64,000 nt of DNA from Nitrosopumilaceae archaeon. GTDB taxonomy: Archaea > Thermoproteota > Nitrososphaeria > Nitrososphaerales > Nitrosopumilaceae. A program made the position numbers and the translations under genes. How positions within the stretch are numbered: position 1 is the stretch's first letter; each line of letters starts with the position of its first letter. Of this stretch, positions 15,551 to 54,308 are shown in pieces. The stretch spans positions 192,001 to 256,000 of the forward strand of contig CBDATR010000024.1 of NCBI GenBank assembly GCA_965200155.1, in the 5' to 3' direction. Under the pieces are notes generated by a model. That model did not search any database, had not been told where the DNA came from, and worked only from the letters and a program-made list of their open reading frames with translations.

Positions 15551-15659
15551 AGTTCATATTGCACAAGCCACGAAAGGCTATGGTAAAATTCTAGCAGTCA
15601 GTTGCTGACCATGCGTGTACGAAGTTCATATTGCACAAGCCACGAAAGGCTATGGTAAA
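15551..15659. repeat. 37-bp direct repeat x2 around a 35-bp unique insert (CRISPR-like unit)
   Basis: AGTTCATATTGCACAAGCCACGAAAGGCTATGGTAAA at 15551-15587 and 15623-15659. Confidence 0.92.
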
Positions 15660-16347
15660 GAGAATAACAGAGGAATCAAGACAAAAGAGGTGTTGCCGCC
15701 ACCAACATCTCAAGACCTGAAACAAGACACGTACGAAGATTGTGAACCAGAGAACGGGAACGACTCGAGTAAAGATGGGCAGGCCCATGATACCAATCAC
15801 CGACACCCAGATACGAATGGTAACTGAAGCATACAGGAAGTATCCCATAGGAGTAGTACGTATTGCAAAGAGGCTTAGACAGAATTACAATATATCGCTC
15901 AGTATATCGCATAATGAAAAAGAACGGTACGACAGTCTCATCACCTGCAAAGTCAGAGTGTGTGCGCTATGAGCGTAAATATTCCAATGCAATGTGGCAC
16001 TGGCATGTCATGAAAAGATGAGCGCTTCGAGGGACTGAATCTCATAGATGATGCATCCAGGTGTATAGTCGGAGCGGCACTATTTGAGCATGCAACCTCA
16101 GAGAACGCCGCTCTATTACTGAGACTGGCAATGAAACGATTCGGCGCCCCTGCATCTCGGATAACGGCGCGTGTTTCGTAGGGAAATAAAAGGGCAAAAA
16201 GAACTGGAAACCCACTATTCTAGGAAGAACTGCTGAATCAAGACATCGTACTAATCAATTCTAGACCATACCACCCGCAGACAAATGGCAAACTGGAGCG
16301 CTTCCATGGAATGATTGAGGACGAGATATGGCATTATGACAGTCTCC

Positions 16348-16439
16348 GTATGAGTTCACGTCTTCCGGAATCTTATGCACAAATCACATTAACTGTCGCG
16401 ATCAGTTATGCGTAAATTTAGACACAGGTGAACTCATAC
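16348..16439. mobile_element. MITE family A, 92 bp, nested in IS481 copy 2
   Basis: 12-bp TIR; TSD CAGTCTCC; other IS copies show the empty site. Confidence 0.96.
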
Positions 16440-16617
16440 CAGTCTCCGGGATTATGTTGACTACTACAATGAGAGAAGATTGCACTTCTCACTGGATAGA
16501 TAACGGCGAAACGCCGCTTCAGGAATAAAAAGGCGACCCAGACAATTAGGGCAAATGATGCAAAATGGATGGAGCGGGATGCCAATGACTAGCGGACCGA
16601 CTTTTCATACATTACAA

Positions 16618-17013
16618 CTAAACCTTGGAGAGATGTATATGTACAATCTTCCATGTGTCTTTTCTTATCAGAACAAAGGTGGCCCTACCATCTATGGTTA
16701 TGTACTCGCCGGTGTAATTCTTGTTATCCACCAACATGCCCTTCTGCCTCAATTGTGTAGCGACTATTGCCGTATCCCCAAATATACTGACCTTTGGATT
16801 AATCAACGAATAGTCATAATCAGATATGCTGACAAAACGGAGCTCCTCTAGCATTAGCGTAGTGGTAAAGTCCTTCATGTCGTACGGCGGAACATCACTA
16901 AAGCTGGTGAACCGTGAGTCGTTTAGTTGTAGCGATTTGAGCATGGCAATATTTTTCGATACGCCAACATCAAAGAACGACTCCACTATCTCCAGCACAG
17001 CAGCCTCCGACAT
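16618..17013 (-). CDS. SnoaL/NTF2-like protein
   Basis: PKVSIFGDTAIV, GRATFVL...WKIVHIHLS. Confidence 0.85.
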   Translation of the reverse strand: MSEAAVLEIVESFFDVGVSKNIAMLKSLQLNDSRFTSFSDVPPYDMKDFTTTLMLEELRFVSISDYDYSLINPKVSIFGDTAIVATQLRQKGMLVDNKNYTGEYITIDGRATFVLIRKDTWKIVHIHLSKV

Positions 17014-17087
17014 GCTAGGAAATTGGTATAAGGGGGTTTTTGTGTTTTCTGTTTGCTAGAAACGTAATCGATTAGGACGCTCAAGTA

Positions 17088-18645
17088 TAGCACTCACCAT
17101 AAGTCTTTGTAGGGTATGAGACCGTACTTATATATAACTACTACTAGAGTAAAACCATAAATAACATAATTCAGACCGTCATTATACCGTTGAAGAGTGA
17201 TAGAGAGTTCTCCCTGCGCGCCAAGATGTTTGGTTACACATCCGATTATGTCTAATAGAGCGGTGTCCGAGATCACGCTGGGTGGTTACTACATACCCGG
17301 AACCACTCTTGAATTGAAGCATGATCCGGCCAAGGTCAAGAATAAGAACGAGTCCGCCAAGTCACCATATGGCCTAAAGAAGGGTGTGATTCATTATACG
17401 TGAATCAGCTACCGCGTTCTAGAACGGCTATCAGGGGACGGTTTACCCGTCCAACAAGAATTGTTTGTTCCTGGAATTGACAAAGTGGCGCCGTGATATT
17501 GAATGGGTGCGTGAGTTACAAGCTAACTATGGCTGGGGTGCCATACTACAGGCGTCTGTCGCGTGCAGGCGCGCGTACGAGGATCATTCTAATTACATAC
17601 CACACCGGCGTGACAGATCATACTATCATGTGTAAGACCACCAATCCGCCGCGGTGAGTTAGAGTTGAACCTGTGCGGTTTTGGTGTGGTGAGAACAACC
17701 AAACCAATCGATCATTCTTGGGACATGCGCTCATTCTAGTGGAACAAGTAACCAATAGTAGGGAGCGTCAATTCGAGATTCACATCAATATACGGGAGAA
17801 ACCATCGACCGGCGTTGTTTGCGGCGCGGATGTCAGCGGGAAACATCTAGCTGTAACAGCTGACACCAACGGGAACACGATGATCCATAACATGAGACAT
17901 CGTTCCATATTACGGGAGATTAGCGCACTCCAGAGTATTAGAACGCGAAGGGGTAAGCGCAGGAAGCGAAAGATTGAGAAGAAAATCATTCAACTACGAG
18001 AGAGAGCGAATAATATCGCGAACGACTCCATGAATAGAGTAGTCCGCGCGGTCACCGAAGGTGCAGGCAAGGTAGTACTAGAGGATTTATCACCGAAAGC
18101 AATGACCAGTCATGGCGGGAACTGGAAAAGAACAATGAACGTATGAGTTCACCTGTGTCTAAATTTACGCACAACTGATGGAACAGGTTGTTCTAGTTAA
18201 TGTGATTTGTGCACAAGATTCCGGAAGACGTGAACTCATACCAATGAACCGCTCCATGCGCGAGAACCGGGTAGGCTAGTTCCGCCGGAAAGTAGTACAA
18301 AAGTGCGAGGCACTAGGAATTGAATTGGCGGCTGTGCCAGCGAGATACACGAGGGGGCGATTTACCCGCCCAACGAGCCAGACCTATCACGTGTGTGGAC
18401 ACGTTGACAACAAATCACGATCAACTAGGGACACATTCAATATGTAACCAGGAATTTCACGCCGATATCAACGCGGCGTTTAGTAACCGGTTTCCCTGTA
18501 GGAGTGGCAGAGCGTGTCGTCCGGGGGTGGGGAACCATTTCCCGACCAACCGGAGGCGTCAGGGCGGGAATAATGGTGACAAGCCAAAGCCAGGTACTGT
18601 CCAGGAACGAGGTGCCATGTTCTCAAAGACTTATGGTGACCGCTA
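17088..18645 (+). mobile_element. tnpB: Full-length TIR-bounded element carrying a tnpB pseudogene, TA on both flanks
   Basis: TA-TAGCACTCACCATAAGTCTTTG ... CAAAGACTTATGGTGACCGCTA-TA; RuvC motifs GADVS, VVLEDL, ADINAA; no transposase inside. Confidence 0.85.
18141..18241. mobile_element. MITE family A, 101-bp variant, nested in tnpB
   Basis: 12-bp TIR; TSD CAATGAAC. Confidence 0.96.
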
Positions 18646-18650
18646 TAGTG

Positions 18651-20138
18651 TCAACCCTCAATACAGTCCATTCCAAACTCGCTACAGAGAATTAGGTGTA
18701 TATCCTCGATAACCTTGCCCTGCTTGAATGGTGTTATAAAGTCCACATCTATATTGTATAATAGTAATGCCTTCTCCCGCTCAAGACCAAGATCTATGTA
18801 ATAATCCATGGCAACTCCATTACAGTTAATCGTGCAACTATTCAGGTATGACAGCGTTTGCCAGAAGGGATCACTTACATACAGGTCCAAGTCAAGCACG
18901 TTCCCGGATTTTATGGCTTGCCTACTTGCTTCGAATAGTTGATCAACTCTGTACAGGTTATCCGGGCCACCAACCATTTCTGCCAATGCATCATCTATGG
19001 ATGACACAGAATCAAGTTTTTCGTATTGGGCTTCATACTTTTTGATCAAGTACTTGAAGTATAGTGTCTCGGCTTTTGTGTCATATGAAACAGAATCATC
19101 TAACAGTTCTGCCTTCTTGGCTACATGGGCAACAACGCAATCAGAGAATGGCATCCCGCCAAGAAAGTCATACCAGAACTGACTCATTACTTCTGCATGT
19201 TGATCTTGAATCATTTCAAGAGAAGATCCTGGCGGCGGAGGAGTGTAGGAATTGACATTGGTAAAATCGCCGTCTAGCAGAGGCGGGTTGTAGGGACTTG
19301 TGCAAGTGGGCGGATCCACTGTGAAGGAAGACTGCGCAAGTACCACATCAAGATCTGACACACTTGTAACAAAAGCAGTGTAATCACCATCATTCAGTGG
19401 CGACGTTACAGTGATGGTATTATTGATTGAAGATTGGGGAAGTACAGTCTGACTACCATCAGACTGTATGAACGTGTAGAAGGGGCCAATATCTGAAGTA
19501 TCCCAAGACAATGTCACCATTTCGATGCCTGTATCGGTGTAATCAACACTGCTATTAACAACAGGAACACTGGCAATATTTGTAAATACACCGTCGGTTT
19601 GTGGTACTGATCTCATTATATCAAAAGTAGTAATTGCGTATAGATTATTGTCGATGGCCCCTATCAGATATGCAGTATAGGAACCAATATCCAGTGGATC
19701 GCTTATGATAGCAGACGTGTCTGTACCTACCTCCAAAAGCATAACGTTGTTGTTGCCGGAATCCCTGATCTGAATCTCAAACGGGCCCGCATCAACAGTA
19801 TTCCAGGATAGAACCACAATCCCATTCGCATCGGGATCATATACGACAATACTGTTTGCTACATTATCTGAGAATGATGTAGATTCCTGGTATTCAACAT
19901 ATACTCCAGATATCTCGTTGTTTATGCGATCCATATATTTTTCGCAATCGGCGGTCTGGAAGTTGTTAGCCTTGCACGTGTTAAAATGGGCTGTGCTCTC
20001 CCTTTGTATATTATCTGCATATAACACATCCTCACCAATGGCTATACCCAAAAGCGCTATCACCACTAAGCTAGCAGATACAACAACCATCGAGTATCCT
20101 ACCTTCGCGTGGTTGCGCGGTGACTTCATTGGCGTCAA
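18651..20138 (-). CDS. Membrane-anchored hypothetical protein with two beta-rich repeats
   Basis: 495 aa, N-terminal TM, two (V/T)LSW.T.D.GPF...G.YTA modules; ends 3 bp from the tnpB element flank. Confidence 0.7.
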   Translation of the reverse strand: MTPMKSPRNHAKVGYSMVVVSASLVVIALLGIAIGEDVLYADNIQRESTAHFNTCKANNFQTADCEKYMDRINNEISGVYVEYQESTSFSDNVANSIVVYDPDANGIVVLSWNTVDAGPFEIQIRDSGNNNVMLLEVGTDTSAIISDPLDIGSYTAYLIGAIDNNLYAITTFDIMRSVPQTDGVFTNIASVPVVNSSVDYTDTGIEMVTLSWDTSDIGPFYTFIQSDGSQTVLPQSSINNTITVTSPLNDGDYTAFVTSVSDLDVVLAQSSFTVDPPTCTSPYNPPLLDGDFTNVNSYTPPPPGSSLEMIQDQHAEVMSQFWYDFLGGMPFSDCVVAHVAKKAELLDDSVSYDTKAETLYFKYLIKKYEAQYEKLDSVSSIDDALAEMVGGPDNLYRVDQLFEASRQAIKSGNVLDLDLYVSDPFWQTLSYLNSCTINCNGVAMDYYIDLGLEREKALLLYNIDVDFITPFKQGKVIEDIHLILCSEFGMDCIEG

Positions 20139-20309
20139 TCGCTAATTCACAAGATTTAATCCTTTCATGTCAGATCACGAATAGTTGCCAAGTTTCATGT
20201 ACCCTAACATTGGACCTGGCACGCTTCACATACAAGGACCACATAGTCTCAACCGCAAGACTCGGTTTACAGGAAGCTACGTACTGGACTTACCGCCCAG
20301 CAAGGATGA

Positions 20310-20560
20310 ACATGACTTTGGCTTGTCACCATTCACATTAGCGCTACGGGACTACCCGTCCGGGCAGGGAATCGGGTGTAGCCGAATTTGACACTAGTAT
20401 ATGCGACTGTTTTATCACACATTGCAAGTATTGCGTCGCGACAGAGCAAGAGCGGCATGCACTGATCCTCCGCAGGTACTGACTGCAATGATTATCCAAG
20501 TTCGCCAATACACAAATTTGCGCAAAGCTGATCGCCATTAGCCCGATTTGAACACAATGG
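20310..20560 (-). pseudogene. Diverged tnpB 3' remnant
   Basis: CTTTGGCTTGTCACCATT shared with the tnpB element 3' region; decayed Cys-rich frame; boundaries approximate. Confidence 0.45.
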
Positions 20561-20562
20561 AC

Positions 20563-20656
20563 ATTATGCAAATAGGTCTTCAAAGCAACGGAGTTCAAAA
20601 TGATCACGTATAAAAAATCCACCACTATCGTGGATTTCCTGACCTTTATGCATAAT
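20563..20656. mobile_element. MITE family C, about 94 bp
   Basis: Imperfect TIR ATTATGCAAATAGGTC / GACCTTTATGCATAAT; homologous copy at 58024-59818 is split by IS66. Confidence 0.7.
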
Positions 20657-20731
20657 CTCTAATGATTAAAGGAGGCGTACACATCCATTGTTGCACCAAA
20701 AATTAAAAGATACGTCTTACGCCATTAGCTT

Positions 20732-21262
20732 GTGAGGGGATTAATAGTGGGAAGATTCCAGCCTTTCCACCTAGGCCATCTGGAGTTAGTATACCAAACT
20801 CTTCGGGAATGTGACGAAGCAATAATTGCCGTAACAGGCTCCCAGTTTAATTATATTGACAAGAATCCATTTACTGCGGGGGAGCGAATAGACATGATAT
20901 ATGAATCCCTGCGCGATACAGAGATAGACCCAAATAGATACATGGTTTTGGGGATTGAGAATCAAAATAATGTTGCGGTTTGGGTTTCATACCTAAGAGC
21001 CGCATTACCAAAGTTTGACAGGATATACAGCGGGAATTCTTATGTATCCATGTTGTTGGCAGGGTCATACATACCAACAATACCGCCAGACTTTGTCAGG
21101 AGGGAATCTCTTAACGCAACTGCAATTAGGAATAAAATACGCGAGGGCGATAAGTGGCAATCTTTGGTGCCAGACGCGGTTGTCCGCCATCTAGAACGCA
21201 TAGGCGGTGTGGAAAGGATAAAGACCATTGGAAGCTCAGACACGGATCCTACCCGATGCTGA
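20732..21262 (+). CDS. nadM: Nicotinamide-nucleotide adenylyltransferase
   Basis: GRFQPFHLGH, NPFTAGER, W..LVP. Confidence 0.95.
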   Translation: MRGLIVGRFQPFHLGHLELVYQTLRECDEAIIAVTGSQFNYIDKNPFTAGERIDMIYESLRDTEIDPNRYMVLGIENQNNVAVWVSYLRAALPKFDRIYSGNSYVSMLLAGSYIPTIPPDFVRRESLNATAIRNKIREGDKWQSLVPDAVVRHLERIGGVERIKTIGSSDTDPTRC

Positions 21263-21379
21263 ATGAATGCACATCGCTCATGTCCAATCTGTGTCTGTGG
21301 ATCAAAGAAATTTCGCAGACTTGACACTAAATCACTAAGACTGCAATGCATTGTCTGTGGTAACGAATTTAGCTTGTGA
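21263..21379 (+). CDS. 38-aa zinc-ribbon microprotein (absent from the ORF track)
   Basis: MNAHRSCPICVCGSKKF...LQCIVCGNEFSL; ATG directly follows the nadM stop. Confidence 0.55.
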   Translation: MNAHRSCPICVCGSKKFRRLDTKSLRLQCIVCGNEFSL

Positions 21380-21380
21380 C

Positions 21381-22332
21381 TCAATAGTACGAAAAGTAAG
21401 TCCGCTTAGGATCCGGCGTACAGTAGCTCAGATTGCACAAGCCAGATGGTAAAGAGAATAACAGATAAATCAAGACAAGAGGTGTTGCCACAACCAACAT
21501 AGCTCAAGACCTGAAACAAGACACGTACGAAGATTGTGAACCAGATAACGGGAACGACTCGAGTAAAGATGGGTAGGCCCATGATACCAATCACCGCCAC
21601 CAAGATACGAATGGTAATTGAAGCATACAGCAAGGACCCCGCCGGAGTAGTACGTATTGCAAATAGACTTAGACATACATATCGCGCAGTATATCGCATA
21701 ATGAAAAAGAACGGCACGACAGTCTCATCACCTGCAAAGTCAGAGTGGGTACGCTATGAGCATAAATATTCCAATGCAATGTGGCACTGGCATGTCATGA
21801 AAAGATGAGCGCTTCAGGGGACTGAATCTCATAGATGATGCATCCAGGTGCATAGTCGGAGCGGCACTATTCTAGCATGCAGCCTCAGAGAACGCCGCTC
21901 TATTACTGAGACTGGCGATAAAGAGATTCGGCGCCCCTGCATCTCGGATAACGGCGCGTGTTTCGTAGGACAATAAAAGGGCAAAAAGAACTGGAAACCC
22001 ACTATTCTAGGAAGAACTGCTGAATCAAGACATCATACTAATCAATTCCAGACCATACCACCCGCAGACAAATGGCAAACTGGAGCGCTTCCATGGAATG
22101 ATTGAGGACGAGGGGACTCTTATTTAAGAGTCCAATGAGATATGGCATTATGACAGTCTCCGGGATTATATAGACTGCTACAATGAGAGAAGGTTGCACT
22201 TCTCACTGGATATAGATAACGGCGAGACACCACTCCAGGAATAAAAAGGCGATCCAGACAATTAGGGCAAATGATGCAAAATGGATGGAGCGAGATGCCA
22301 ATGACTAGCGGACCGACTTTTCATATATTACA
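21381..22332 (+). mobile_element. IS481-like element copy 3
   Basis: Same ends and decayed transposase. Confidence 0.88.
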
Positions 22333-22515
22333 ACCACACCAAAACAGCACAGGCCCAACTAGAACTCACCACGACGGATTGGTGGTCTTACACGTGATAG
22401 TATGTTTATGTTATTTTCACGCCGGTGTAGTATGTCATTGGAATGATCCTCGTACGCCCGCCTACACGCGACAGACGCTTGTATATGGCACCCAGATCAC
22501 AAATTGCTTGTAGTG
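22333..22515 (-). pseudogene. Internal 5'-side fragment of the tnpB element
   Basis: Reverse complement aligns with about 17515-17690; begins ACCACAC at the IS481 right end. Confidence 0.75.
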
Positions 22516-22700
22516 GGAGTATGTGTCTAAACTTGAATGTGATGGATAGCAACGATTAGTATGATTTAGACACGTAATTGAAGACGTAAACTCATACTGG
22601 TATTGCACATTTTATGAGTCGTCCTCTTTTGGTATTGATCCCTTTTAAACCAGTAACAAAAACTTATGGTATTCACTATGATGTCTCTGATAATTCAGAT

Positions 22701-22827
22701 GTAACCATTTAGCTTGCGTTAACATCTAAACAATAAATCATAGACGTATGTGAGACATTATGAAAAAGAATGGGGCATGCTAGCGGTGTATTTTAGACGG
22801 TTATCAAGGGGTGACCCAAACTGTTAC
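22701..22827. mobile_element. MITE family B, degenerate
   Basis: GTAACCATTTAG ... GTGACCCAAACTGTTAC; interior similar to 12986-13127. Confidence 0.65.
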
Positions 22828-22836
22828 AGTTCAATC

Positions 22837-22928
22837 GTATGAGTTCACGTCTTCCGGAATCTTGTGCACAAATCACATTAACTGTCACGATCAGTTATGC
22901 GTAAATTTAGACACAGGTGAACTCATAC
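22837..22928. mobile_element. MITE family A, 92 bp
   Basis: 12-bp TIR; TSD GTTCAATC. Confidence 0.96.
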
Positions 22929-22986
22929 GTTCAATCTGTCCTGCATCATTAGACAACAATTTATGGCGCATCAGCGTAGCTACATA

Positions 22987-23139
22987 ATGAACTGTAATGC
23001 ATGCCATCACACCTACGCCGCTCATGTACAAGACCACGGTTCCGCTTCCATACTAAAACTAGGTCGGTGTAACATACCCGGTTGTTCTTGTGATCAGTTT
23101 CAAGAATCTATACGTAAAATAGATGAGGAGTTGGATTAA
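22987..23139 (+). CDS. 50-aa Cys/His metal-binding microprotein (absent from the ORF track)
   Basis: MNCNACHHTYAAH...LGRCNIPGCSCDQFQESIRKIDEELD. Confidence 0.7.
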   Translation: MNCNACHHTYAAHVQDHGSASILKLGRCNIPGCSCDQFQESIRKIDEELD

Positions 23140-23149
23140 CTGTTCATGG

Positions 23150-23254
23150 CATTGTCTTGATTCTTCTTTTCACCTATGCCCTTTCGTGGCTTGTGCAGCC
23201 TGAAATAGCCCGTGATGGTACGCCGGATCCTGAGTGCTCTTTTCGTACCATTGA
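23150..23254 (-). mobile_element. IS481-like left-end fragment
   Basis: TACGCCGGATCCTGAG...CTTTTCGTACCATTGA. Confidence 0.7.
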
Positions 23255-23278
23255 CTTGACTATGACGTACCTGTGACA

Positions 23279-23596
23279 TCAATTGCATGATGGCTTCAAC
23301 GCAGTAATAACACGATCTGTTATGCGCCTTCTCTCGTACTCATCAGACTCAAACATGGGTAGTATTGCCAGATAGAGATTCTGCTCAGAGCCTGCCATAC
23401 TAATCCAGCACTTGAAGGAGTCCATAGACGTAAAAAACGCACGATCATGTGTTTGTTCGCATACTCCTGCATATGTGGGCCTGAACTGATCCTTGTCTCT
23501 TGATAATATTATGTAGACCACTTTCTCCATAGGTGGTCCCCAATCATCTAGTGGTACCGGGCCCAAGAACTCGTAGTGAAGTATTTGTATGCTCAT
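23279..23596 (-). CDS. Conserved-looking hypothetical protein
   Basis: 105 aa, YEFLGP.PL..WGPPMEKVVY...LYLAILPM...P.CN. Confidence 0.75.
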   Translation of the reverse strand: MSIQILHYEFLGPVPLDDWGPPMEKVVYIILSRDKDQFRPTYAGVCEQTHDRAFFTSMDSFKCWISMAGSEQNLYLAILPMFESDEYERRRITDRVITALKPSCN

Positions 23597-23771
23597 AGTA
23601 TGGTGTAATATGCGCGCCTTTTTTCCTTTGCGTATGGAAAGAACTCCTCAATAGTACGTAAAGTTAAGCATAGCTGAGATCGCGCCAATTTTCCCTAGTC
23701 ATAGCTTTTCGTATGATTATGGTGAAAAATATATCTCAAGCACGTAAGATACAATAATTAAAAATTAAAAA

Positions 23772-26105: not shown

Positions 26106-26152
26106 TTGTGTTATATGCCAATATTTAACTATAAAAATGATTAGTATAACAG

Positions 26153-27333: not shown

Positions 27334-27339
27334 ATCATT

Positions 27340-27438
27340 GTATGAGTTCACCTGTGTCTAAATTTACGCACAACTGATCGCGACAGTTAAAGAATCGGTT
27401 CTTTTGTGCACAAGATTCCGGAAGACGTGAACTCATAC
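27340..27438. mobile_element. MITE family A, 99-bp variant
   Basis: 12-bp TIR; TSD CTATCATT. Confidence 0.95.
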
Positions 27439-27484
27439 CTATCATTTGCACAACTGATAAATAATATCAATAGTAAAGTTCAAG

Positions 27485-42001: not shown

Positions 42002-42109
42002 AGCATGTATAAAAGAACTCCAAACATTGTCCGTGATTTTGCCCTGTTTTGGCGTCTACCCCCAAGTTTTTACAGATTATATTTCATGGCTTCACACACT
42101 AAATGGTGA

Positions 42110-42330: not shown

Positions 42331-42529
42331 TGGTGAATTTGAGCGACATTTGTGATTGGTGGGAGATGATTCTGTCATACAAAGTACAAATTCGCGGTGG
42401 GATACTAAATCTTGCAACCAATCTGATAACTCATTTTATGGCATGAATGTGTGCCTGAGTCTGGGACAACTTGGGCGATTACCTTTGCGCATGTATTTTT
42501 ATGTGACAATGATAATGTTGATTCATAAC

Positions 42530-44136: not shown

Positions 44137-44206
44137 AAAACTAGTGTTTTCTTTAGTCTGTATAATGTGACAAAAATTTTTAGTGTGAGTTATACGAACA
44201 TGGATC

Positions 44207-45328
44207 ATGCGTACTTCAATACTAAGCTTGATTGTGGGTATAGTGGTGGTTGGGGCAGTGATAACCGCGCTATACGTGCCCACTACATTGGAAACAGACC
44301 CTGTATCTGTGGATGTTCCTAATTACATTGCATTTGAGCCCGCTAGCGCTCAGGAGAATCTAACTCTTGTGGACATATTCCAAATGTCTGAATCCGGAAC
44401 GGTGCAAATAGTCACTTTGCGGAATGATACACTCAGTAATAATAGCGTAGGATCCGGCTTTGTGTTTGACAAGATGGGTCATATAGTAACAAATGCACAC
44501 GTAGTACGCGATAGCGTGTCCCTGGAGGTTACCTTTCTGGATGGCAGGTCATATGAGGCAGAGCTTGCCGGTGCAGATGAGCACACTGACTTGGCCGTGA
44601 TCAAGGTTGAGACGGATCCTGATCTACTTTCCCCCCTGCCCATTGGAGACTCTGGCATTCTACAAGTGGGCCAGGGGGTGGCTGCCATTGGCAATCCATT
44701 CGGACTGTCCGGTTCAATGACCGCGGGAATAGTTAGTCAGGTTGGGAGACTGCTTCCTGCAGGTCAGTCAAACTTTTCAATACCTGATGTGATACAGACC
44801 GACGCGGCCATCAATCCAGGCAACTCTGGCGGTCCCCTGTTAAATATGCGAGGTGAGGTCATTGGAGTGAACACGGCCATACAGACCGGTACTGGTGAGT
44901 TTGCTGGCGTGGGATTTGCCGTTCCCTCACAGACGGTTCTAAAAATAGTTCCTACCCTTATAGAGGATGGCGAGTATCAACATCCTTGGATTGGTGTGTC
45001 CGGGACAGATATAAGCCCCAGATTGGCAAATGTACTTAATCTTACGGACACCCGTGGATTTCATGTCGTGGCGGTCGTGGAGGACAGCCCCGCGCACAAG
45101 GCTGGCTTGCGTGGCTCCAACCAAACAGTGCAGTATGAGGGTGTAGTGTATGTTGTGGGTGGAGATGTGATAACAATGGTAGATGACGTTACTGTACGAA
45201 AAATCTCCGACATTTTGTTACATTTACAGCGCTCAAAGGCAGTTGGCGATGAAATACTAGTCCAGCTGTTACGGGATGGGAAAGCTTTGGAAAAAACCAT
45301 AATCCTAGAGAAACGTCCAGTCCCATGA
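44207..45328 (+). CDS. htrA: HtrA/DegP serine protease with PDZ domain
   Basis: GSGF, TNAHVV, DLAVIK, QTDAAINPGNSGGPL, SPA.KAGL. Confidence 0.95.
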   Translation: MRTSILSLIVGIVVVGAVITALYVPTTLETDPVSVDVPNYIAFEPASAQENLTLVDIFQMSESGTVQIVTLRNDTLSNNSVGSGFVFDKMGHIVTNAHVVRDSVSLEVTFLDGRSYEAELAGADEHTDLAVIKVETDPDLLSPLPIGDSGILQVGQGVAAIGNPFGLSGSMTAGIVSQVGRLLPAGQSNFSIPDVIQTDAAINPGNSGGPLLNMRGEVIGVNTAIQTGTGEFAGVGFAVPSQTVLKIVPTLIEDGEYQHPWIGVSGTDISPRLANVLNLTDTRGFHVVAVVEDSPAHKAGLRGSNQTVQYEGVVYVVGGDVITMVDDVTVRKISDILLHLQRSKAVGDEILVQLLRDGKALEKTIILEKRPVP

Positions 45329-45336
45329 AAAGTATG

Positions 45337-45508
45337 ATAATTGCTTAGACCACTTTTCCATATATGCTGCCAAAGCAGAGACTAAATCCTGTTATTTCAC
45401 TACACAGTATAGGATTGGCAGGGACCATTTCCTACCGGTTTGCTTATGCTTGCTTACCGGATTGTGCCATGAAAACATATCTTAATCCGGAGCGACCTAA
45501 ACGGTTAC
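45337..45508. mobile_element. MITE family B relic
   Basis: Intact end GCGACCTAAACGGTTAC ending at 45508; other end only 11/17 matching. Confidence 0.45.
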
Positions 45509-45559
45509 GTGCTATGATGCTCGCCTGTCTTTGTGTGTGTGCGGTTACCTTTCTTTGGG

Positions 45560-45873
45560 ATCTGGTCCATAATCTTCGTACATGTCTTGAACTAATGCTT
45601 GGGCCCTGGGCTATTTGTGACGGCAGCGCCCTGCGACGCACGTCGCGCCCTCTCCTTCCGCGCATCATAATGCTTGGGCCCTGGGCTATTTGTGACGGCA
45701 GCGCCCGGTGGCCGCGCCGTTAAAGCGACATACTGGATTCCAATGCTTGGGCCCTGGGCTATTTGTGACGGCAGCGCCTCTTTCTGTCGCGATTCCTCTC
45801 TTTACCATGTCGCTTGTGCAGCCTGAACTACTGTGCGCCGGATCCTGAGCGGAATTACTTTTCGTACTATTGA
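45560..45873 (-). mobile_element. Diverged IS481-like left-end fragment hosting the CRISPR-like array
   Basis: TCAATAGTACGAAAAGT end; encodes IAQ..SISSRHVRRLW HTH. Confidence 0.8.
45594..45778. CRISPR. CRISPR-like mini-array: three identical 37-bp repeats, spacers of 38 and 36 bp; repeat derived from IS481 coding sequence
   Basis: AATGCTTGGGCCCTGGGCTATTTGTGACGGCAGCGCC at 45594, 45669, 45742; no cas genes or leader; function unproven. Confidence 0.65.
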
Positions 45874-45932
45874 CCAAGTGTAACTCACCATACTGGAATA
45901 GACCTAGAATGAGATAACTAGTCATGGAATGA

Positions 45933-46940
45933 TCAGTACTTGTCAAGACCAGTTGGTTCTGGTTGCAATGATGATTCCATTTCGAACTGTTCTGGTAGTT
46001 GGTCTATGATCCTGTCTGACGCTATTCCCACATAGACCAACCGCTCTATTATGGCGCGTACCATGTCACCATTCACGCCCTCTAGTGGATAATTCGTGAT
46101 GCCACTCTCTGCATTGGAACGATACTTGTATCTGTCAACGAACCATCCTACAGGCGTTCTACCATTGACTGAGTAATGGATTGTTGGTATGTTATCGTAT
46201 ACTAACACGTTATCCAGTAGTAGTTTGGATTGATCAACTATTCCCTTTGGTCCGGGACCGTCATTGGGTTTCTTACCAAAGGCTATTTTTTCGGGAGCGT
46301 CAGGTATTGGAACCAGCGACTCGCCCAGATTGTAACGGGGGCCGGTCTCATAATTGAGATGCAAGTCAGCTAGCTGTCTACCTGCTTTCATGAATGAGTG
46401 GAAATCGGGCGCCATGGGCATGTTTGGAAAACCGCGAACGAGGAATACCTGGTACTTGGTACGATAGCCGGGGTGGTGTAGAATCCCATACGTATAGTAG
46501 AATATATCCTCCTTCGTTATAGCATCATCATGGTATCGGTTCTGGTATTGTTTCAGCGCCCAGTCTGTAATGTTATCATTCATTTCGTCACCATCATTGT
46601 TGTTATTTTGTTTCTTTACTTTCATGGGAAAGCACTGGGACGGTGCAATGTTGTTGAGATCCGGCGTCATTCCCGTTATGAATACTGAGAACTCGCCCTT
46701 GATCTTGTTGGGTACTATTATCGCCAGGTTCTCGTATGGTGGACTGGTGGACTTACCTTGTGGGTGTTCTCATTATTTTTGTTCTTTGTACGCAAGGGTA
46801 AACAACGAGATGTTTCATGTACATGGATGTCCGGTGTTATATCGGTGACTAATGTTGAGAATTCACCCTTTATTTTATTAGGTACCAAGGGGACTCTTAA
46901 AGAAGAGTCCAACAAGGACTGTCATCAAATCGTACTATAA
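45933..46940 (-). pseudogene. Silent duplicate of the Type ISP C-terminus with two further TRD cassettes
   Basis: 45935-46577 is a colinear, ungapped copy of 48182-48824; preceded by two KIKGEFS...PD cassettes. Confidence 0.88.
46889..46912 (+). mobile_element. 24-bp hairpin micro-insertion
   Basis: CAA-GGGGACTCTTAAAGAAGAGTCCAA-CAA. Confidence 0.75.
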
Positions 46941-46958
46941 CCGGATACACCCTGGCCA

Positions 46959-47369
46959 TTATATCCCACCTGCATATTTAGGGTGAAATGCCGGAATTCC
47001 CACCATGGTGGCCACCTTAAGCATTCCCCGATCAAGCGTAATCAGGCCAATTCCATGTATGCGGCACGTGGCCAGAATGCGGTGATCACCATTATGTGCA
47101 TAGTGATACTGGTTACGTAGCATTTGGGCGGTATCCTCAAGATCTGTGGGATCCGATATTATGCCGACGCGTCTCTCAGCAAATATCTTGTGCAGGCTAC
47201 CAAGAATTGCATCAACTGTCAGGTTATGTACCCGTCTGAGCTCCCATAATACTTGGCGACACAGCACTATCTTATATTGCTTGCCCTTAAGCTTGTCTCG
47301 CAGTTTACTGACGACCGAGGCGCCCTCCATTATGCCTATTACAACGCATGTGTCAACGGCTATTTTCAT
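46959..47369 (-). CDS. PIN-domain (VapC-like) ribonuclease
   Basis: IAVDTCV, V.WEL, GDHRILA, LITLD. Confidence 0.88.
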   Translation of the reverse strand: MKIAVDTCVVIGIMEGASVVSKLRDKLKGKQYKIVLCRQVLWELRRVHNLTVDAILGSLHKIFAERRVGIISDPTDLEDTAQMLRNQYHYAHNGDHRILATCRIHGIGLITLDRGMLKVATMVGIPAFHPKYAGGI

Positions 47370-47664
47370 GATAATGGTATGCTAATATAGTTATTATTGA
47401 TTACTTACATAGTATTGTTAGTATCCATAGTATTAATAATATAATAAATAATTAATATGTCCAGGCACACTCTTATCTGCTTCATTGTCTATATTGTGAC
47501 TTCTATTGACTTAAGTGCTTATTTTGAAAAATTTTCCATACAAACTTGGGCGGCTTAACGCGAATATTACAGCTATGTGATTCAAATTGACCCTGTGGGC
47601 ATGGACTTATGCACACGTGTTTAGATTGAAAATTTTTCAGGGCACTGATCCTATACAGACCTCT

Positions 47665-48020
47665 ATTACACGCCCCCCTCCTTACTACTATGCTACACAC
47701 TTTGTGCATCTAACTGCTTAGTTCATTTGTATAACACCTATTATTTAGCTGCCGGCACGCCCCTGGGCTTCTTATGCTATTGATCATATGCCATATATCC
47801 ACACACGCCCCTGAGCTTATACTATTGACATGACCGCCCCTTATGCCACTGCTCCTTATGGCGCCCCCATATTTCCACACACGCCACTGCTCCTTATGAT
47901 CTCCATATGTCATGACGCCCCGCCCCTGGGCTTACATATCCGCCATGCTCCTTATGGCGCCCCGCCCCACTGTCACTGCTCCTTATGGCGCCCAGAATGC
48001 CGCGACTCCTTATGCCGGTT
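47665..48020. repeat. Degenerate short-repeat tract
   Basis: Recurrent GCTCCTTATG(GCGCCC) and CACGCCCCTG(A/G)GCTT motifs with irregular spacing. Confidence 0.75.
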
Positions 48021-48161
48021 ACCTAGTGAGTTAAATTTTCGAGGACAAGTGCCTTACTATAATACGGAACGCTTCAAAAGACTGATCATTCCAACTCATG
48101 TTAACACTATTCTCTATGTACTGACTTCTTAACAGCGCCCCATATGCGCTAGACGAATATT

Positions 48162-51100
48162 CTAGGGAATAGGCGCCTTGTAGTACTTGTCCAGGCCGGT
48201 TGGTTCTGGTTGCAATGATGATTCCATTTCGAACTGTTCTGGTAGTTGGTCTATGATCCTGTCTGACGCTATTCCCACATAGACCAACCGCTCTATTATG
48301 GCGCGTACCATGTCGCCATTCACGCCCTCTAGTGGATAATTCGTGATGCCACTCTCGGCATTGGAACGATACTTGTATCTATCAACGAACCATCCTACAG
48401 GCGTTCTACCATTGACTGAGTAATGGATTGTTGGCATATTATCGTATACTAACACGTTATCCAGTAGTAGTTTGGATTGATCAACTATTCCCTTTGGTCC
48501 GGGACCGTCATTAGGTTTCTTACCAAAGGCTATCTTCTTTGGAGCGTCAGGTATTGGAACCAGCGACTCGCCCAGGTTGTAACGGGGGCCGGTCTCATAA
48601 TTGAGATGCAAGTCAGCTAGCTGTCTACCTGCTTTCATGAATGAGTGGAAATCGGGTGCCATGGGTATGCTTGGTAAACCACGAACGAGAAATACCTGGT
48701 ACTTGGTACGATAGCCGGGGTGGTGTAGAATCCCATACGTATAGTAGAATATGTCTTCCTTTGTTATTGAATCATCATGGTATTGGTTCTGGTATTGTTT
48801 GAGCGCCCAGTCTGTAATGTTATCTTTCATGGAGTCATCGTCTCCTGTACTTTCAGTGGGAATACCTGACCATTTGGTACTACTTGTAGATCCGGTATCA
48901 TTCCCGTTATGAAGCAACTCCACTCGCCCTTGATCTTGTCGGATACTATTATCGCCAGATTTTCCTGTGTAATTACCTTCTCCGGTACAGGACCTAGATT
49001 TTGGTCTGCCTTTACATGGTGAGTGGTGAGTGGTGAGTGGTGAGTGGTGAGTGGTGAGTGGTGAGTGGTGAGTGGTGAGTTACCTACCTCTTGTTCATTC
49101 TCTGCATTTTGTTTCTTTACTTTCATGGGGAAGCACTGGGATGCCTCGTGAATGTGTAAGTCCGGTGTGGTGTCTGTGACAAATGTTGAGAATTCACCTT
49201 TTATTTTGTCCGGTACCATGATGGACACGTTCTTGGTGTCTGGGCGTGGGTAGAATAAGGGTATACGGTATGTGCTGGTGATAAAAGTCGTATCAAAATA
49301 GAGATATTGTTTGAAAAATGGTCTATACAGAGACATTCTAATGTTGGTATCATGGAACATTAGTGGTTCATCTAGTTTCCGTATACTATTCTGAAGATCT
49401 TCATTCCATGCAACATATTTCTTATCCTTGTCAAAATTTTTCTTCAAGTCCTGCTTGGCACAATGTTCTATTGTTCTTCTCATATTCTCTTCCAGGTCTT
49501 GGGGCGATGCGTTGTATACCCAAACATCTCTGTGTGTTTTCAATCCGTTAGAGTACATATGAAATAGAGTATTGACTGTCTTACCACGTTTTCCCTCTTT
49601 ACTTCCCATTGAAGTCATGGAATCCCATCGTTCACTGGTATCACCACGCTGTTCCAACCAGTCATGATAACGGTCTGGTGTTATAATTTGCCAGTCTTGT
49701 ATTCCGGCGATGGAGCCATATTCTTTTATCTTTTCTAGTTTCTTATCCCTGTCCAGATAATCACCAATGTCGTGGTAGTGGATGGTGCAAGATTGTTTGG
49801 CCGGGTTCTTAACTAGTATGGTTATGGCTGTTGCCTCACGGGAGCCACCGCCAAACACATTGCCTGCCTCGCGCCTTCGTTGTTCTCCCTGTGTTTTTGC
49901 ATCACCTCGTAAATTGAAACAGTAGACATCCGTGAACTCCATTCCAAGACAGGCGCGTATGCCTGCTTCACTATTCCCAGTGATATATGCGGATGGTGTG
50001 ATTAAACCGATAACTCCGGAATCACCTATTCTTTCTGATACCCAGCGGAGGGCCTTGATGTAGGAGTTGTATAACCCTCTAGTGTTCCCTTTGGGCGCGT
50101 TTTTGATGTATGTCTTTGACACACTATCTCCCAGATACGGATGCGAGACATTCTTGTTATCCTCATTGGCCGTCTTCTGACCGCCACTATATGGCGGATT
50201 CCCCACTATGACATTGACGTAATCCATATTCTGCCGTTTCACCCTAGTCATGGCTTCCTCCAGGGAATCATCTGTAATCTTGATCTGCTTCTTACGCTGT
50301 TCGGAATCCAGCCTGTATGAGGGGCTCTGTGCGAATGTATCCAGGTATGATATCCCGCCAAATGGAACATACTCCCCGCTCTTTTTCTGGTATGATGCCT
50401 CAATATTGGACATGGCGACATAGAATGCCGGTAACATTATTTCATTCGCGTAAATATCATTCTGGTACTTGTCAGGTAGTGCATCATCACTGATCATCCC
50501 TCGCTCTATTAACTGGGCAAGGAATATCCCGGTACCGGTGAACGGGTCCAGCACCTTTACTGCTCTATCATTGAATGTTTTCCCAAACTCCGATTCTAGT
50601 ACATGAGAGACTGATGAAATAATGAAATTCACGATTTCGACTGGTGTGTGTACGATTCCATGTTTGTCCGCGGACTTTTTATCCGAGCCAATGAAGAATG
50701 CGTCATATATGGCGCGCAGGAAATCCTGCTTGGCATCCGGCTCCTTGAATAGTTCAATGTCTGCCTGTATGCCCGTATAGAATGCCTCGAACTGTTCTAG
50801 TTGTCCCTGTATGTTTAGTCGTTGCATGGTATTATCGAATGCTGATGCCACCGGGTTAGCATTCTTGGGGAACATTACATTGAATACTCTGGACATTACA
50901 GCATGCTGTGATAATGCACGAATGGTCTGCTCATATGTCAACGTGAATCCGACTATATGTTTCAGGTTCTCGTGTAATTGTTCAATGATGGGCGCAGTTT
51001 CCGGCTCAATTTTGATTCGCTGTTTCAGTTTGGTCTCTATTATTACGGCTTGCTCCCCTAGTCGCTTGCCCATGTTGGCGTGGTAACTGGCATCGCCAAG

Positions 51101-53218
51101 ACTCAGTATGACATTCTGTACATCCTTTAACAACTTGTCACTGAGTCCTGCCCCCAGTGTACGAATAATCCAGTCATTCAGTCTTGGTGGTATTTCTGAC
51201 GGATCCGGTGGCTCATGTTTACCACTCTTTCCCGACTTGGACAGTACATACTTGTTCAGTAGCTTTTGCAGTCCATCATCATGTGCTGTGATCGCACGTA
51301 ATATCTTGCTTATCTGCTCGTACCGTGTGTTCCTTTTCAACACATGATGTGGATCATCACCCTTCAAGACTGGGATGGGGACTATAACGTAACCTGTTTT
51401 CTTTCCCTCTGATTTTCGCATTACTCTACCAATACTTTGTATTATGTCGATGGGTGAGTTCTTGGGTTCCATGAATACAACGGCATCCAAGGCTGGAACG
51501 TCCACGCCCTCCTGCAAGCACCTGGCATTACTGAGTATACGAATCTCCTTTGGATCACTATCACTATTTCGTAACCAGTCTATCCGCGCTCCCCTGTCCA
51601 GCGAGTTGGTAGAACCATCAACATGCCTCGTTACAGTCTTGTAACCGTCCAGATCGGGATCAGTCTTTAGTAGTCTCTCGCTTAAATTATCAAAGCTTAA
51701 TGTTTCCTTCGTGATTTTATCAAGCTTGAGTGGTTTCTTTGCCTTGTCCATGTTCCTGCCATGATTGGAGAACAACTTTGACGCTTTTATGGTGTTGAAG
51801 AATACCATCACCCTCTGTAAGGGCCGGAATTCCTTAGTATCACCATCATATGTGATCGCCTTACAGATACTGTTCACTTTTGACATGTAGTCTATGTCCA
51901 TATCCTCGTAATCCTTGAGATCATCACCATGTTCCCTTGCAGCCTTGATGATTTCACCATACGCATCATTCTCATCAACCTCTGGTAGTATTATTTTGAA
52001 AGGTGTGAGTAGTCCAATATCGACCGCTTTTGAGAATGGTAAGTCATATAGTACATCGCCATATTTCTCATTATCCATGGAGTATACTTCCAGTCCTTGA
52101 TCCGTGGCATCCTTTCTACCCTTTTCTGTATAGACACGGGGGGTGGCAGTCATGTAGAGCCGCCTCTTGGCTGGAACCTCGCTATTCTTGTGTGCAGTCA
52201 AGTAATAGGATTCCTTGATTTTCTCGGCGCCAGTGGTGCGGTGGGCCTCATCGAATAGAATTAGATCAAATATACCATTTCTGTCCCGTATGGCTTTTCC
52301 CACACGCTCCACTGAATTATACGTGGAAAATATGACACGCATACCTTTTCGGTTCTCCATAGAATGTAGTTGCTCCTTTATCGTTTCCACATCTGTGGAT
52401 GGTTGTATGGGACACTCAGTGATGGAACCTGCCTCATCTGTACCGGACGACTTGTCAGAGCATACTGCCATGTACTGATGTTCTATGGAACGGTTATCTG
52501 CCCACTCTCTCATCGCCTGCGGTATCAGTGATATTGACGGTACCAAGTATAGAACAAGACCATCTTTCCCTGGAATGGTTTCTGCGATATGGAGTGATGT
52601 TATGGTCTTGCCAGTCCCACATGCCATGATGAGCTTACCGCGATCTGCACCCTGTAGTCCGGTGACTACTCTTTGAACTGCTTCCTTCTGGTGATCTTGT
52701 AATGTCTTTGGTTTCACTGCTCTCTTCATTCCACTCCAGTCAATTCTGCTCTGGCGGAGATCAGCCTTCATGAGTATTGAGTAACCGGATTCTTCGAACG
52801 GTTTTACAATATTCCTGCTTACGTGCGCCCCTGTGAATACAAGAATGAGTCTGTCCATCTTTTTACTCTCCTTTACGACAAACATGTTTGAGATCTGATT
52901 CTCGTGGATACTGGAATCATCATTCCAGCACTTGCACTGAATGCCAACTAACTTGTCATCCTTGTCTCTGGCAACCAGATCAATTCCAATGTCCGGTTCA
53001 CGATACCAGTCATGGAATAGTTTTACTTCCTTGAACTCATTCTTGTATATGCTGTCATTCTTGAAGTAGTGTAGCATTAGTTTCTCAAATCGGACACCAC
53101 GTTCAGTCTTGCTAACTTTACTGCCCTTGCGGCTGATATCCTTTTCATCATCGGTCTCCGCACGTAGCCTTGCTAATGCTTGATCAAAAGTTTCCACTAT
53201 TCCTGGAATGATTCCCAC
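48162..53218 (-). CDS. Type ISP (LlaGI/LlaBIII-like) restriction-modification enzyme, currently split by a frameshift (ORFs 53218-48827 and 48923-48162)
   Basis: Mrr-like DIGIDLV..IQCK, MACGTGKT, DEAH, TATPR, QSIGRVMRK, LDPFTGTG, NPPY, C-terminal DIFYYTYGILH. Confidence 0.92.
49018..49080. repeat. (GGTGAGT)9 heptanucleotide microsatellite inside the R-M gene
   Basis: 63 bp perfect; encodes (SPLTTHH)3. Confidence 0.97.
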
Positions 53219-53258
53219 CCAAGTATTAGTATATTGTGTTGGTTGGCTGAGCGACTCT

Positions 53259-54308
53259 TCAATAGTACGAAAAGTAAGTCTGCTTAGGATCCGGCGTACA
53301 GTAGCTGACTATTTCATTGCACAAGCCATATGGTAAAGAGGATAACAGAGGAATCAAGAGAATCGCGAAGCGATTCAGCAAGACAAGAGGTGTTGCCGCA
53401 ACCAACATAGCTCAAGACCTGAAACAAGACACGTACGAAGATTGTGAACCAGAGGACGGGAATGACTCAAGATGGGCAGGCCTATGATACCAATCACCGC
53501 CACCCAGATACGAATGGTAACTGAAGCATACAGCAAGGATCCAGCCGGAGTAGTACGTATTGCAAAGAGACTGAGACATGATACATATCGCGCAGTATAT
53601 CGCATAATGAAAAAGAACGGTACGGCAGTCTCATCACCTGCAAAGTCAGAGTGGGTACGCTATGAGCATAAATATTCCAATGCAATGTGGCACTGGCATG
53701 TCATGAAAAGATGAGCGCTTCAGTGGGGACTGAATCTCATAGATGATGCATCTCATTATTGCGATATTATATTTAACGCGCATTTTACGCTTCAGGGGGG
53801 ACTGAATCTCATAGATGATGCATCCAGGTGTATAGTCGGGGCGGCACTATTCTAGCATACAACCTCAGAGAACGCCACTCTACTGAGATTGGCAATGAAA
53901 CGATTCGGCGCCCCTGCATCTCGTATAACGGCGCGTGTTTCATAGGACAATAAAAGGGCAAAAAGAACTGGAAACCAACACTATTCGAGGAAGAACTGCT
54001 GGATCAAGAATCATACTAATCAATTCCAGACCATACCACCCGCAGACAAATGGCAAACTGAAGCGCTTCCATGGAATGATTGAGGACGAGGGGACTCTTA
54101 TTTAAGAGTCCAATGAGATATGGCATTATGACAGTCTCCAGGATTATTTAGACTACTACAATGAGAGAAGATTGCACTTCTCACTGGATAGATAACGGCG
54201 AAACGCCGCTTCAGGAATAAAAAGGCGACCCAGACAATTAGGGCAAATGATGCAAAATGGATGGAGCGGGATGCCAATGACTAGCGGACCGACTTTTCAT
54301 ACATTACA
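53259..54308 (+). mobile_element. IS481-like element copy 5, carrying a 37-bp duplication with insert
   Basis: Same ends and decayed transposase. Confidence 0.88.
53716..53824. repeat. 37-bp direct repeat x2 (one mismatch) around a 35-bp unique insert (CRISPR-like unit)
   Basis: CGCTTCAG(T/G)GGGGACTGAATCTCATAGATGATGCATC at 53716-53752 and 53788-53824. Confidence 0.92.

Follow-up and report, generated by a model that had tools for sequence, protein, structure and literature searches.

We observed that four inserts of 35–38 bp, bordered by duplicated 37-mers, interrupt three loci of a 64,000-nucleotide stretch of DNA from a Nitrosopumilaceae archaeon (the window), as the original prediction had described, and genome comparison indicates that these units are very probably off-target, full-site spacer integrations by the resident type I-G Cas4/Cas1–Cas2 machinery. 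The duplications have the length of the resident repeat (36–37 against 36 bp), the inserts fall inside the resident spacer range, apparently intact cas1 and cas2 genes are present in the genome, single-copy empty sites exist, and the targets share features of the leader-repeat junction, in the form of a weak resemblance and of hotspots with the same boundaries. On the strength of these sequence features, Cas4/Cas1–Cas2 is the probable catalyst at the off-array sites.

The assembly (G000) is a draft of 51 contigs and 2.38 Mb, 87.6% complete. The host is a sponge-associated archaeon with an IS-laden symbiont genome, 29% of which is repeated. The features of the window are as follows (positions in the window; no strand is assigned).

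15551–15587: locus 1 target, copy 1; 37 bp, in a degraded multi-copy IS element, identical to 15623–15659
15588–15622: locus 1 insert; 35 bp, reproduces the host sequence G000:C10:132853-132887, 35/35 identical
15623–15659: locus 1 target, copy 2; 37 bp
45594–45630: locus 2 target, copy 1; 37 bp, within a divergent member of the locus 1 IS family
45631–45668: locus 2 insert 1; 38 bp, copy of host DNA at G000:C10:225709-225674
45669–45705: locus 2 target, copy 2; 37 bp, the three locus 2 copies being identical
45706–45741: locus 2 insert 2; 36 bp, source not found
45742–45778: locus 2 target, copy 3; 37 bp
53716–53752: locus 3 target, copy 1; 37 bp, one mismatch to copy 2
53753–53787: locus 3 insert; 35 bp, G+C 9/35, source not found
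53788–53824: locus 3 target, copy 2; 37 bp, one mismatch to copy 1

The three duplicated 37-mers proved mutually unrelated in sequence, as had been proposed. At locus 1 the donor match ends precisely at both insert borders and so sets the duplication at 37 bp, and the 37-mer is present singly, as an empty site, in three sister copies of the element. The first insert of locus 2 matches its donor at 36/36 positions by BLAST, and 39 nt are identical once the match is extended over both junctions; for the second insert, the rest of the assembly held nothing near full length, and viral contigs gave no exact match. Many sister copies, ~70–80% identical (about 75%), cross this site with a single copy of the target. 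At locus 3 the empty site is seen in 28 sister copies, and the target is also occupied in another IS copy (G000:C34:19810) by a different insert; the window insert has no self copy in the assembly, and exact searches of viral and metagenome contigs returned nothing. The single empty sites that had been reported in sister IS481 copies were thus found for all three loci; the IS481 label itself is tentative, an 80-aa ORF fragment adjoining locus 3 giving a weak match to the IS481 transposase model (E = 3.9e-6). It is true that the inserts have no match within the window, as had been claimed, yet two of the four exactly reproduce host sequence of contig C10. A 23-nt repeat pair at 47791–47889 looks like a low-complexity coding repeat and was rejected as an event.

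A scan of the 2.38-Mb assembly for direct repeats 55–99 bp apart returned 24 cases of length 36 and 38 of length 37, with 1–7 cases of any other length, and a period peak at 72–74, an excess that chance comes nowhere near explaining. The peak anticipated at 37 bp is therefore present, together with one at 36. Candidates with a duplication of 33–42 bp and a period of 69–78 numbered 72, from which five protein tandem repeats or MITE copies were removed (C12:2392, C22:46844, C40:6293, C29:837 and C25:10561); when copies with a common insert were scored once, there remained 63 distinct inserts, whose targets fall into 53 clusters. Among these 63 events, the duplication is 36 bp in 21 and 37 bp in 28, the period is 72 in 26, 73 in 18 and 74 in 8 (overall range 71–75), and the inserts measure 34–40 bp, mostly 34–39. 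Target copies are identical in 49/63 events, and where the donor fixes the duplication ends the length is exactly 36 in three events and exactly 37 in two. Sister IS copies supply an empty site for many events, all three window loci included; a DNA search for orthologous empty sites in relatives gave matches only to flanking genes, at other places. Two of the 63 events, those of the families C10:6462 and C10:210130, may have arisen earlier and been passed on as IS copies multiplied, or may be repeats internal to the IS.

The enzyme had been expected outside the window, and it was found on another contig (C9). The single Cas1 match in the assembly (308 bits) is a type I-G Cas4g/Cas1g fusion of 549 aa (NCBIfam cas4g_cas1g, 711 bits), in which the Cas4 and Cas1 motif residues invariant in five homologues are intact. 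A 91-aa Cas2 follows; both are open frames scoring above the family cut-offs. The canonical array (C9:71011-92087) consists of 289 repeats, each 36 bp, and about 287–288 spacers of 34–57 bp (mostly 36–38, mode 37), with periods of 71–76 (72 in 84 cases, 73 in 101 and 74 in 63). Cas3g, Csb2 and Csb1 lie downstream of the array, and a lone leader-plus-repeat on C43 is the sole other carrier of the canonical repeat. The large subunit Csx17/Cas8g had no match in G000; since the same model matched only 1/5 relatives and 0 control genomes, nothing firm can be said on interference. In relatives with a homologous Cas4/Cas1 and 36-bp repeats events are few, with 0 across 400 kb of G005 and about 4 across 800 kb of G006.

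The lone Cas1, its Cas2 and the matching array dimensions bear out the core of the original prediction, off-array spacer acquisition by a Cas1–Cas2 integrase with a fixed ruler. Its strict 37-bp ruler does not hold: genome-wide the duplications are 36–37 bp and track the canonical 36-bp repeat. Likewise, the search for cas1/cas2/cas4 and an array of 37-bp repeats and 35–38 bp spacers recovered the genes and spacers mostly of 36–38 bp, but repeats of 36 bp. Against our reading stands that many duplications are 37 bp, though the canonical repeat is invariably 36 bp.

Comparison of the inserts with the genome showed a near-full-length host copy elsewhere for 32/63 off-array inserts and for 0/287 canonical spacers (Fisher p = 4e-28); for the other 31/63, genome comparison identified no source. 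Host chromosome copies at this frequency, and in two of the four window inserts, show that the inserts are not chiefly the record of exposure to foreign DNA that had been suggested. Maximal donor matches are mostly 36–38 nt, and because the donor loci are distant, local slippage, raised as a possible source, is excluded. One insert, at C25:4760, shares 26 nt with canonical spacer 58, with an 11-nt shift and on the opposite strand; the common sequence is absent from the remainder of the genome. A check for a common PAM had been proposed, and none was significant at 25 single-locus donor sites (P = 0.565 in a test across all patterns); TTN occurs at 9/25 of these sites against 4.9 expected (P = 0.048, uncorrected). 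A comparison with virus and metagenome sequence had also been proposed; cores of inserts or spacers, three searched against viral contigs and two against metagenome contigs, gave no exact match. Comparison of 20 kb of the canonical array with 50,697 phage records gave zero matches, and no protospacers of canonical spacers were found in these records or by the exact core searches of viral and metagenome contigs.

We observed a clustering of events at C9:62500–71010, beside cas4/1 and the leader, where five are found against 0.23 expected (Poisson P = 4e-6). None of the five is more than 8.5 kb from cas1 and the leader, and two of them are located between cas4/1 and cas2. Some targets are hotspots, entered by independent inserts at identical boundaries: at least six times at one, four times at another and twice at three more. 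Aligned in register with the repeat and the final 10 nt of the leader (46 positions), targets resemble the leader-repeat weakly but significantly (mean 15.8/46 vs 13.95, sd 0.34, at random sites; 0/300 control sets as high), with enrichment at repeat positions 5, 11, 12 and 34. This controlled comparison was used instead of an unsupervised motif search, which was set aside as hotspot-dominated and uncontrolled. The internal inverted repeats that had been pointed out do exist in the targets, but random 36-mers show them just as often (mean best stem 3.68 in targets vs 3.73 in controls, P = 0.66).

Repair or replication independent of Cas proteins, by template switching or templated insertion at breaks, could have copied distant pieces and duplicated the flanks. 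Such an origin would suit the half of the inserts copied from far host loci, the undetectable PAM and a genome rich in break-making IS elements (29% repeated). These processes, however, come without a ruler, whereas both lengths are fixed here, at the values found in the resident CRISPR system. The clustering beside cas1, the overlap of one insert with a canonical spacer of non-genomic origin and the in-register likeness of targets to the repeat argue against it further, and we consider it very unlikely.

A slightly smaller probability attaches to some other enzyme of mobile elements, either a transposase or a Cas1 resembling a casposase, that made the duplications and left the inserts as tiny cargo. 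IS elements of several families (IS481-, IS66- and IS5-like fragments) are abundant, but the inserts are mutually unrelated and lack common terminal repeats, save for copies inherited by IS duplication, and the only Cas1-family match in the assembly is the CRISPR-linked fusion. No transposase is known to produce target duplications of 36–37 bp, and those of casposons are far shorter, at about 14–15 bp. IS or transposon insertion was rejected as the duplications enclose no conserved ends or recurrent identical cargo, and a casposon (a Cas1 homologue, a kilobase-scale element and a short duplication) was rejected given inserts of 34–40 bp and a lone, CRISPR-linked Cas1.

Less probable again is that selection maintains the units as working mini-CRISPR arrays, whose products might serve as guide or regulatory RNAs. 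Three loci now hold two inserts each, and self-matching inserts could in principle regulate; yet several events destroy long ORFs, and the "repeat" differs at every locus, which leaves no one processing enzyme able to recognise them all. The off-array loci also fail as functional CRISPR arrays because no repeat is common to the units, each locus having its own, unrelated one and the canonical repeat being confined to C9:71011-92087 and C43, and because no locus holds more than two inserts. The period is a multiple of three in 33/63 events against 100/287 array periods (p = 0.005); this excess sits in repeated elements (19/28) and is absent from unique sequence (14/35), and coding selection is therefore not claimed. 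Insertion into neutral sequence, as originally proposed, was partly right, although some events disrupt long ORFs, and the seeding of new arrays may hold only in that three loci have gained two inserts. Least probable of all, to the point of being negligible, is an artefact of mis-joined reads in a repeat-rich metagenome bin, which a draft bin in 51 pieces, 29% of it repeated, might invite, but an assembler cannot place 35–38 bp distant copies between exact 36–37 bp local copies 63 times, at least one flank is single-copy in 35/63 events, and similar units are present in a closed single-contig relative.

We propose a mechanism for off-target integration that draws on the known Cas1–Cas2 reaction. 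The complex would load spacer-sized DNA of about 35–38 bp and attack both strands of a non-CRISPR site 36–37 bp apart, as it does on its own 36-bp repeat. Gap repair would then copy the stretch between the attack points, yielding target copy, insert and target copy. Self-derived inserts would persist off-array, where loci without a common repeat should yield no crRNA, while self spacers in the true array would be removed by autoimmunity. The IS-laden symbiont genome presumably tolerates and fixes such insertions.

Off-target integration itself is already known; its natural scale and the self-derived share are new. Nivala, Shipman and Church (Nat Microbiol, 2018) reportedly described non-canonical integration creating "neo-CRISPR" loci with the type I-E system of E. 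coli; the events are said to be rare and to occur under Cas1–Cas2 overproduction, with "circumstantial evidence" in two other species. As far as that work is described in outline, it has in common with ours a spacer-sized insert with a repeat-length duplication at non-CRISPR genomic sites, and the idea that such sites seed arrays. In contrast to that account, the events here are natural, 63 in one 2.4-Mb archaeal genome, and involve a type I-G Cas4/Cas1 fusion, a 36–37 bp ruler and inserts of which half are self-derived. Cas1–Cas2 of P. furiosus integrates off-target in vitro at repeat-like sites with attack points 30–31 bp apart (PMC6698737). The one-repeat-length spacing and scattered positions in common with the repeat recur in our events (36–37 bp, with a weak likeness), but the P. 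furiosus targets described there are plasmids in vitro, with G/C preferred at the borders, whereas here the products are fixed in the genome and the target logo is much weaker (PMC6698737). The type I-U/I-G system of Geobacter sulfurreducens, also with a Cas4/Cas1 fusion, acquires plasmid DNA with TTN PAMs for 50% of unique spacers (PMC6547450). In that system as in ours, the protein family is the same, spacers are predominantly ~36 bp long and the array lies downstream of cas2; unlike there, no donor PAM is significant here and half of the off-array inserts are chromosomal (PMC6547450). Self-targeting spacers within arrays likewise represent host DNA of spacer length caught by the adaptation machinery, but here the self pieces are all off-array (32/63) and none is in the array (0/287).

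These events appear to form a rare natural record of a CRISPR integrase misfiring at about sixty off-array places, half of the inserts being self-copied. Off-target integration has been shown in vitro and, according to papers citing the work, described in cells under overexpression; its natural frequency and cost are poorly known. Because 63 fixed natural events belong to one identifiable type I-G system, they suffice to address target preference, the slack of the ruler (36 vs 37 bp) and donor preference. The self contrast (32/63 vs 0/287) makes the question of uptake discrimination versus later selection testable with natural data. CRISPR adaptation also appears as a mutagen, with ORFs disrupted and an insertion inside the cas operon of a repeat-rich symbiont genome, and three loci apparently caught at the two-spacer stage bear on the possible origin of new arrays. 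We tentatively suggest, as a plausible reading that we do not yet favour over others, that the integrase writes across the genome often enough to shape it and that the off-array inserts are an unselected ledger of uptake. If so, this shaping would cover broken genes, in-frame blocks of 24–25 codons, insertion in the cas operon and two-spacer proto-arrays; and since the ledger is about half self with no clear PAM, the array would be all-foreign mainly through autoimmune purging after uptake, not through discrimination at uptake.

The window carries three loci at which a 37-bp target is repeated around short inserts, with anatomy and coordinates exactly as first described:

15551-15587 and 15623-15659: locus 1, a 37-mer in two copies with a 35-bp insert between them
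45594-45630, 45669-45705 and 45742-45778: locus 2, another 37-mer in three copies, with inserts of 38 and 36 bp
53716-53752 and 53788-53824: locus 3, a third 37-mer in two copies differing by one mismatch, with a 35-bp insert

We refer to such a unit, a spacer-sized insert between two target copies outside a CRISPR array, as an off-array event. Sister copies holding the target once and without insert were found for locus 1 (n = 3), for locus 3 (n = 28) and, at about 75% identity, in large number for locus 2; single, empty targets in other copies of the same repeated element were likewise seen for many events. An 80-aa IS481-like ORF fragment (E 3.9e-6) next to locus 3 lends weak support to the earlier IS481 label, and the internal inverted repeats once singled out in the targets are no more frequent than in random 36-mers. 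Two unrelated tandem repeats also lie in the window: a 93-nt (31-codon) unit in six head-to-tail copies, five of them identical (1702-2259), and the 7-nt unit TGGTGAG (49017-49087) within a 1463-aa minus-strand ORF (48827-53218).

The window is C24:192001-256000 of the source assembly (G000), which comprises 51 contigs and 2.38 Mb and is 87.6% complete. Its rRNA genes fit archaeal models and the sequencing runs containing window DNA are labelled sponge metagenome; it therefore represents a sponge-associated archaeon. We scanned it for off-array direct repeats 55-99 bp apart, as the original prediction had proposed. The scan recovered the sharp peak expected at 37 bp (38 cases), but also a second at 36 bp (24 cases), with other lengths represented 1-7 times each; repeat periods peaked at 72-74. 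A duplication of 33-42 bp with a period of 69-78 yielded 72 candidates. Five of these were discarded, being tandem repeats in proteins or copies of a MITE; with copies sharing an insert counted once, 63 distinct events in 53 target-sequence clusters remained. Most look recent, since 49 of the 63 have two identical target copies. The whole-assembly scan placed no event on the small low-GC contigs (C2-C4, C6, C8, C14-C18 and others), which probably represent contaminants of the bin, from the host or elsewhere, judging by their 36-41% GC (45-51% in the core) and microsatellites; they also hold protein-like tandem repeats.

The putative integrase, expected to lie outside the window, was located on contig C9. 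The only Cas1-family match in the assembly is a Cas4/Cas1 fusion of 549 aa that scores 711 bits against NCBIfam cas4g_cas1g; after it come a Cas2 of 91 aa and the array of a type I-G system. All Cas4/Cas1 residues invariant across five homologues are kept, including the D...ExK and Cys-cluster motifs, which we take to be the Cas4 nuclease and Fe-S sites. The locus and its surroundings, with a related sequence on contig C43, are as follows:

C9:64500-66000, upstream of cas4/1: fragments of a HaeIII-like restriction enzyme and a D12 methyltransferase, two of them with off-array events
C9:70400-70590, between the cas4/1 stop and the cas2 start: two insertions, adding 148 bp
C9:71011-92087, after cas2: CRISPR array, 36-bp repeat in 289 copies
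C9:100750-103430, past the cas effector genes: DUF1156 anti-phage-associated gene
C43:128228-128263, minus strand: second leader-like sequence with one canonical-type repeat (3 mismatches) and no spacers, adjoining an IS end; may be a truncated or newborn array

Array repeats are exact in 287 of 289 copies, the most diverged (4 mismatches) standing at the far end. The 287 canonical spacers measure 34-57 bp (mode 37), giving periods of 72 in 84 cases, 73 in 101 and 74 in 63. Downstream, on the opposite strand, lie genes for a Cas3-extension protein, Cas3g, Csb2 and Csb1, and after the Cas3g/Csb2/Csb1 block IS5 fragments occupy the expected place of the large-subunit gene; Csx17 was not found in G000 with a model that hit only 1 of 5 relatives and no control genome.

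We then asked where the inserts come from. The original prediction regarded them as a record of foreign DNA, and here it needs its main correction: for 32 of the 63, a copy of nearly full length (≥94% identity) exists at another place in the genome, as against none of the 287 canonical spacers (Fisher p = 4e-28). The donor, that is, the host locus matching the insert, is a single place for 26 of these inserts and multi-copy for six. The locus 1 insert is a copy of C10:132853-132887 in the same genome, and the first of the two at locus 2 is a copy of C10:225709-225674. Local slippage as a source of the inserts is ruled out because the donors are distant. At their longest, donor matches mostly span 36-38 nt, as canonical spacers do. 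In five events the donor fixes the insert at both ends, and the duplication then measures exactly 36 bp in three of them and exactly 37 bp in two, including locus 1; the proposed ruler is not strictly 37 bp, and its slack off-array is about one base.

Contig C10 (540 kb, 22.7% of the assembly) supplies 15 of 25 single-locus donors (p = 6.6e-5), dispersed along the contig, which has no GC-skew turn; targets, unlike donors, are distributed in proportion to contig size. No PAM pattern at donor sites was significant (best of all patterns, P = 0.565). TTN, described as the PAM for the I-U system of Geobacter (PMC6547450), fits 9 of 25 donor sites against 4.9 expected (P = 0.048 before correction). 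Searches of phage records (50,697, with 20 kb of the canonical array) and exact searches of viral contigs (three insert or spacer cores) and metagenome contigs (two) found no source for the other 31 inserts or the canonical spacers; some of the former may derive from the 12% of the genome missing from the assembly.

Several observations tie the events to the CRISPR machinery. The insert at C25:4760 and canonical spacer 58 share 26 nt, on opposite strands and with an offset of 11 nt; this stretch is absent from the rest of the genome, so the two were drawn from the same DNA. A second overlap, 14-16 nt shared with spacer 72, could be coincidental. The 8.5 kb upstream of the leader hold five events against an expectation of 0.23 (P = 4e-6): three in degraded restriction-modification genes just upstream, and two between cas4/1 and cas2, where the target duplication has preserved both the 3' end of cas4/1 and the start of cas2. 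Here the integrase has apparently inserted DNA into the operon that encodes it. Targets are also hit repeatedly. One 36-mer in an IS66-like transposase gene has received at least six independent inserts with identical boundaries, another target four, and three further targets two each; the locus 3 target is among those hit repeatedly, with a second insertion at C34:19810. When aligned in register with the repeat and the 10 leader bases preceding it, targets match at a mean of 15.8 of 46 positions, compared with 13.95 (sd 0.34) for random sites treated identically, and none of 300 random sets reached the observed value; the excess falls on repeat positions 5, 11, 12 and 34.

We observed the anatomy of the units, the length match, the empty sites, the donors, the clustering, the hotspots and the target resemblance directly, and we are highly confident that off-target full-site integration by the resident Cas4/Cas1-Cas2, as the putative acting enzyme, explains them best. 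Lacking a common repeat, off-array units would give rise to no crRNA, and self-derived inserts could therefore persist; self spacers within the array would be purged, leaving them only off-array. Off-target integration as such is already known. One in vitro study of P. furiosus documents it at sites that resemble the repeat and are spaced by one repeat length (PMC6698737), and papers citing the relevant work mention it in vivo for E. coli, with 'circumstantial evidence' in two other species. Our full-text literature search returned no report of dozens of events in a natural genome, nor of a sponge symbiont. What is notable here is the scale, the I-G subtype and the self-derived half of the inserts.

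Repeated DNA (another copy at ≥80% identity) makes up 29% of G000, and both flanks lie in such DNA for 28 of 63 events (p = 0.012). Its families include an IS481-like element of about 1.1 kb, with ~90 copies and no long ORF in the copies examined, and a 92-nt palindromic MITE-like unit with hundreds of matches. At several unique sites, removal of the insert restores long ORFs (495, 523, 407 and 326 aa); other events are in frame and the host ORF remains open. In the 503-aa IS66-like transposase ORF at C24:459383-460891 (minus strand), a 72-bp off-array unit sits in frame: 12 residues are duplicated, 12 new ones are gained, and the reading frame remains open.

Cas4/Cas1 fusions 58-66% identical to this one occur in five other genomes, four of the same genus and one of the same family, and repeats are 36 bp in all three relatives whose cas loci we examined. 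The same scan found no CRISPR-like unit in 400 kb around the cas locus of one relative, G005 (10.6 expected at G000 density), and three candidates in 800 kb of the closed genome G006 (C1:867871, 1037483 and 1129538; 21.2 expected). A fourth, older-looking G006 unit (C1:983328) is separated from the cas4/1 gene of that genome by about 370 bp. All four have 36-38 bp duplications and 72-bp periods, and G006 carries a type I-G system like that of G000; the two inserts tested have no second copy in G006. The lineage therefore shows the phenomenon at a low level, from which G000 stands out both by its number of events and by their self-derived share. Its abundance of events may reflect weakened selection in a symbiont laden with IS elements, or an integrase that is more active or less specific.
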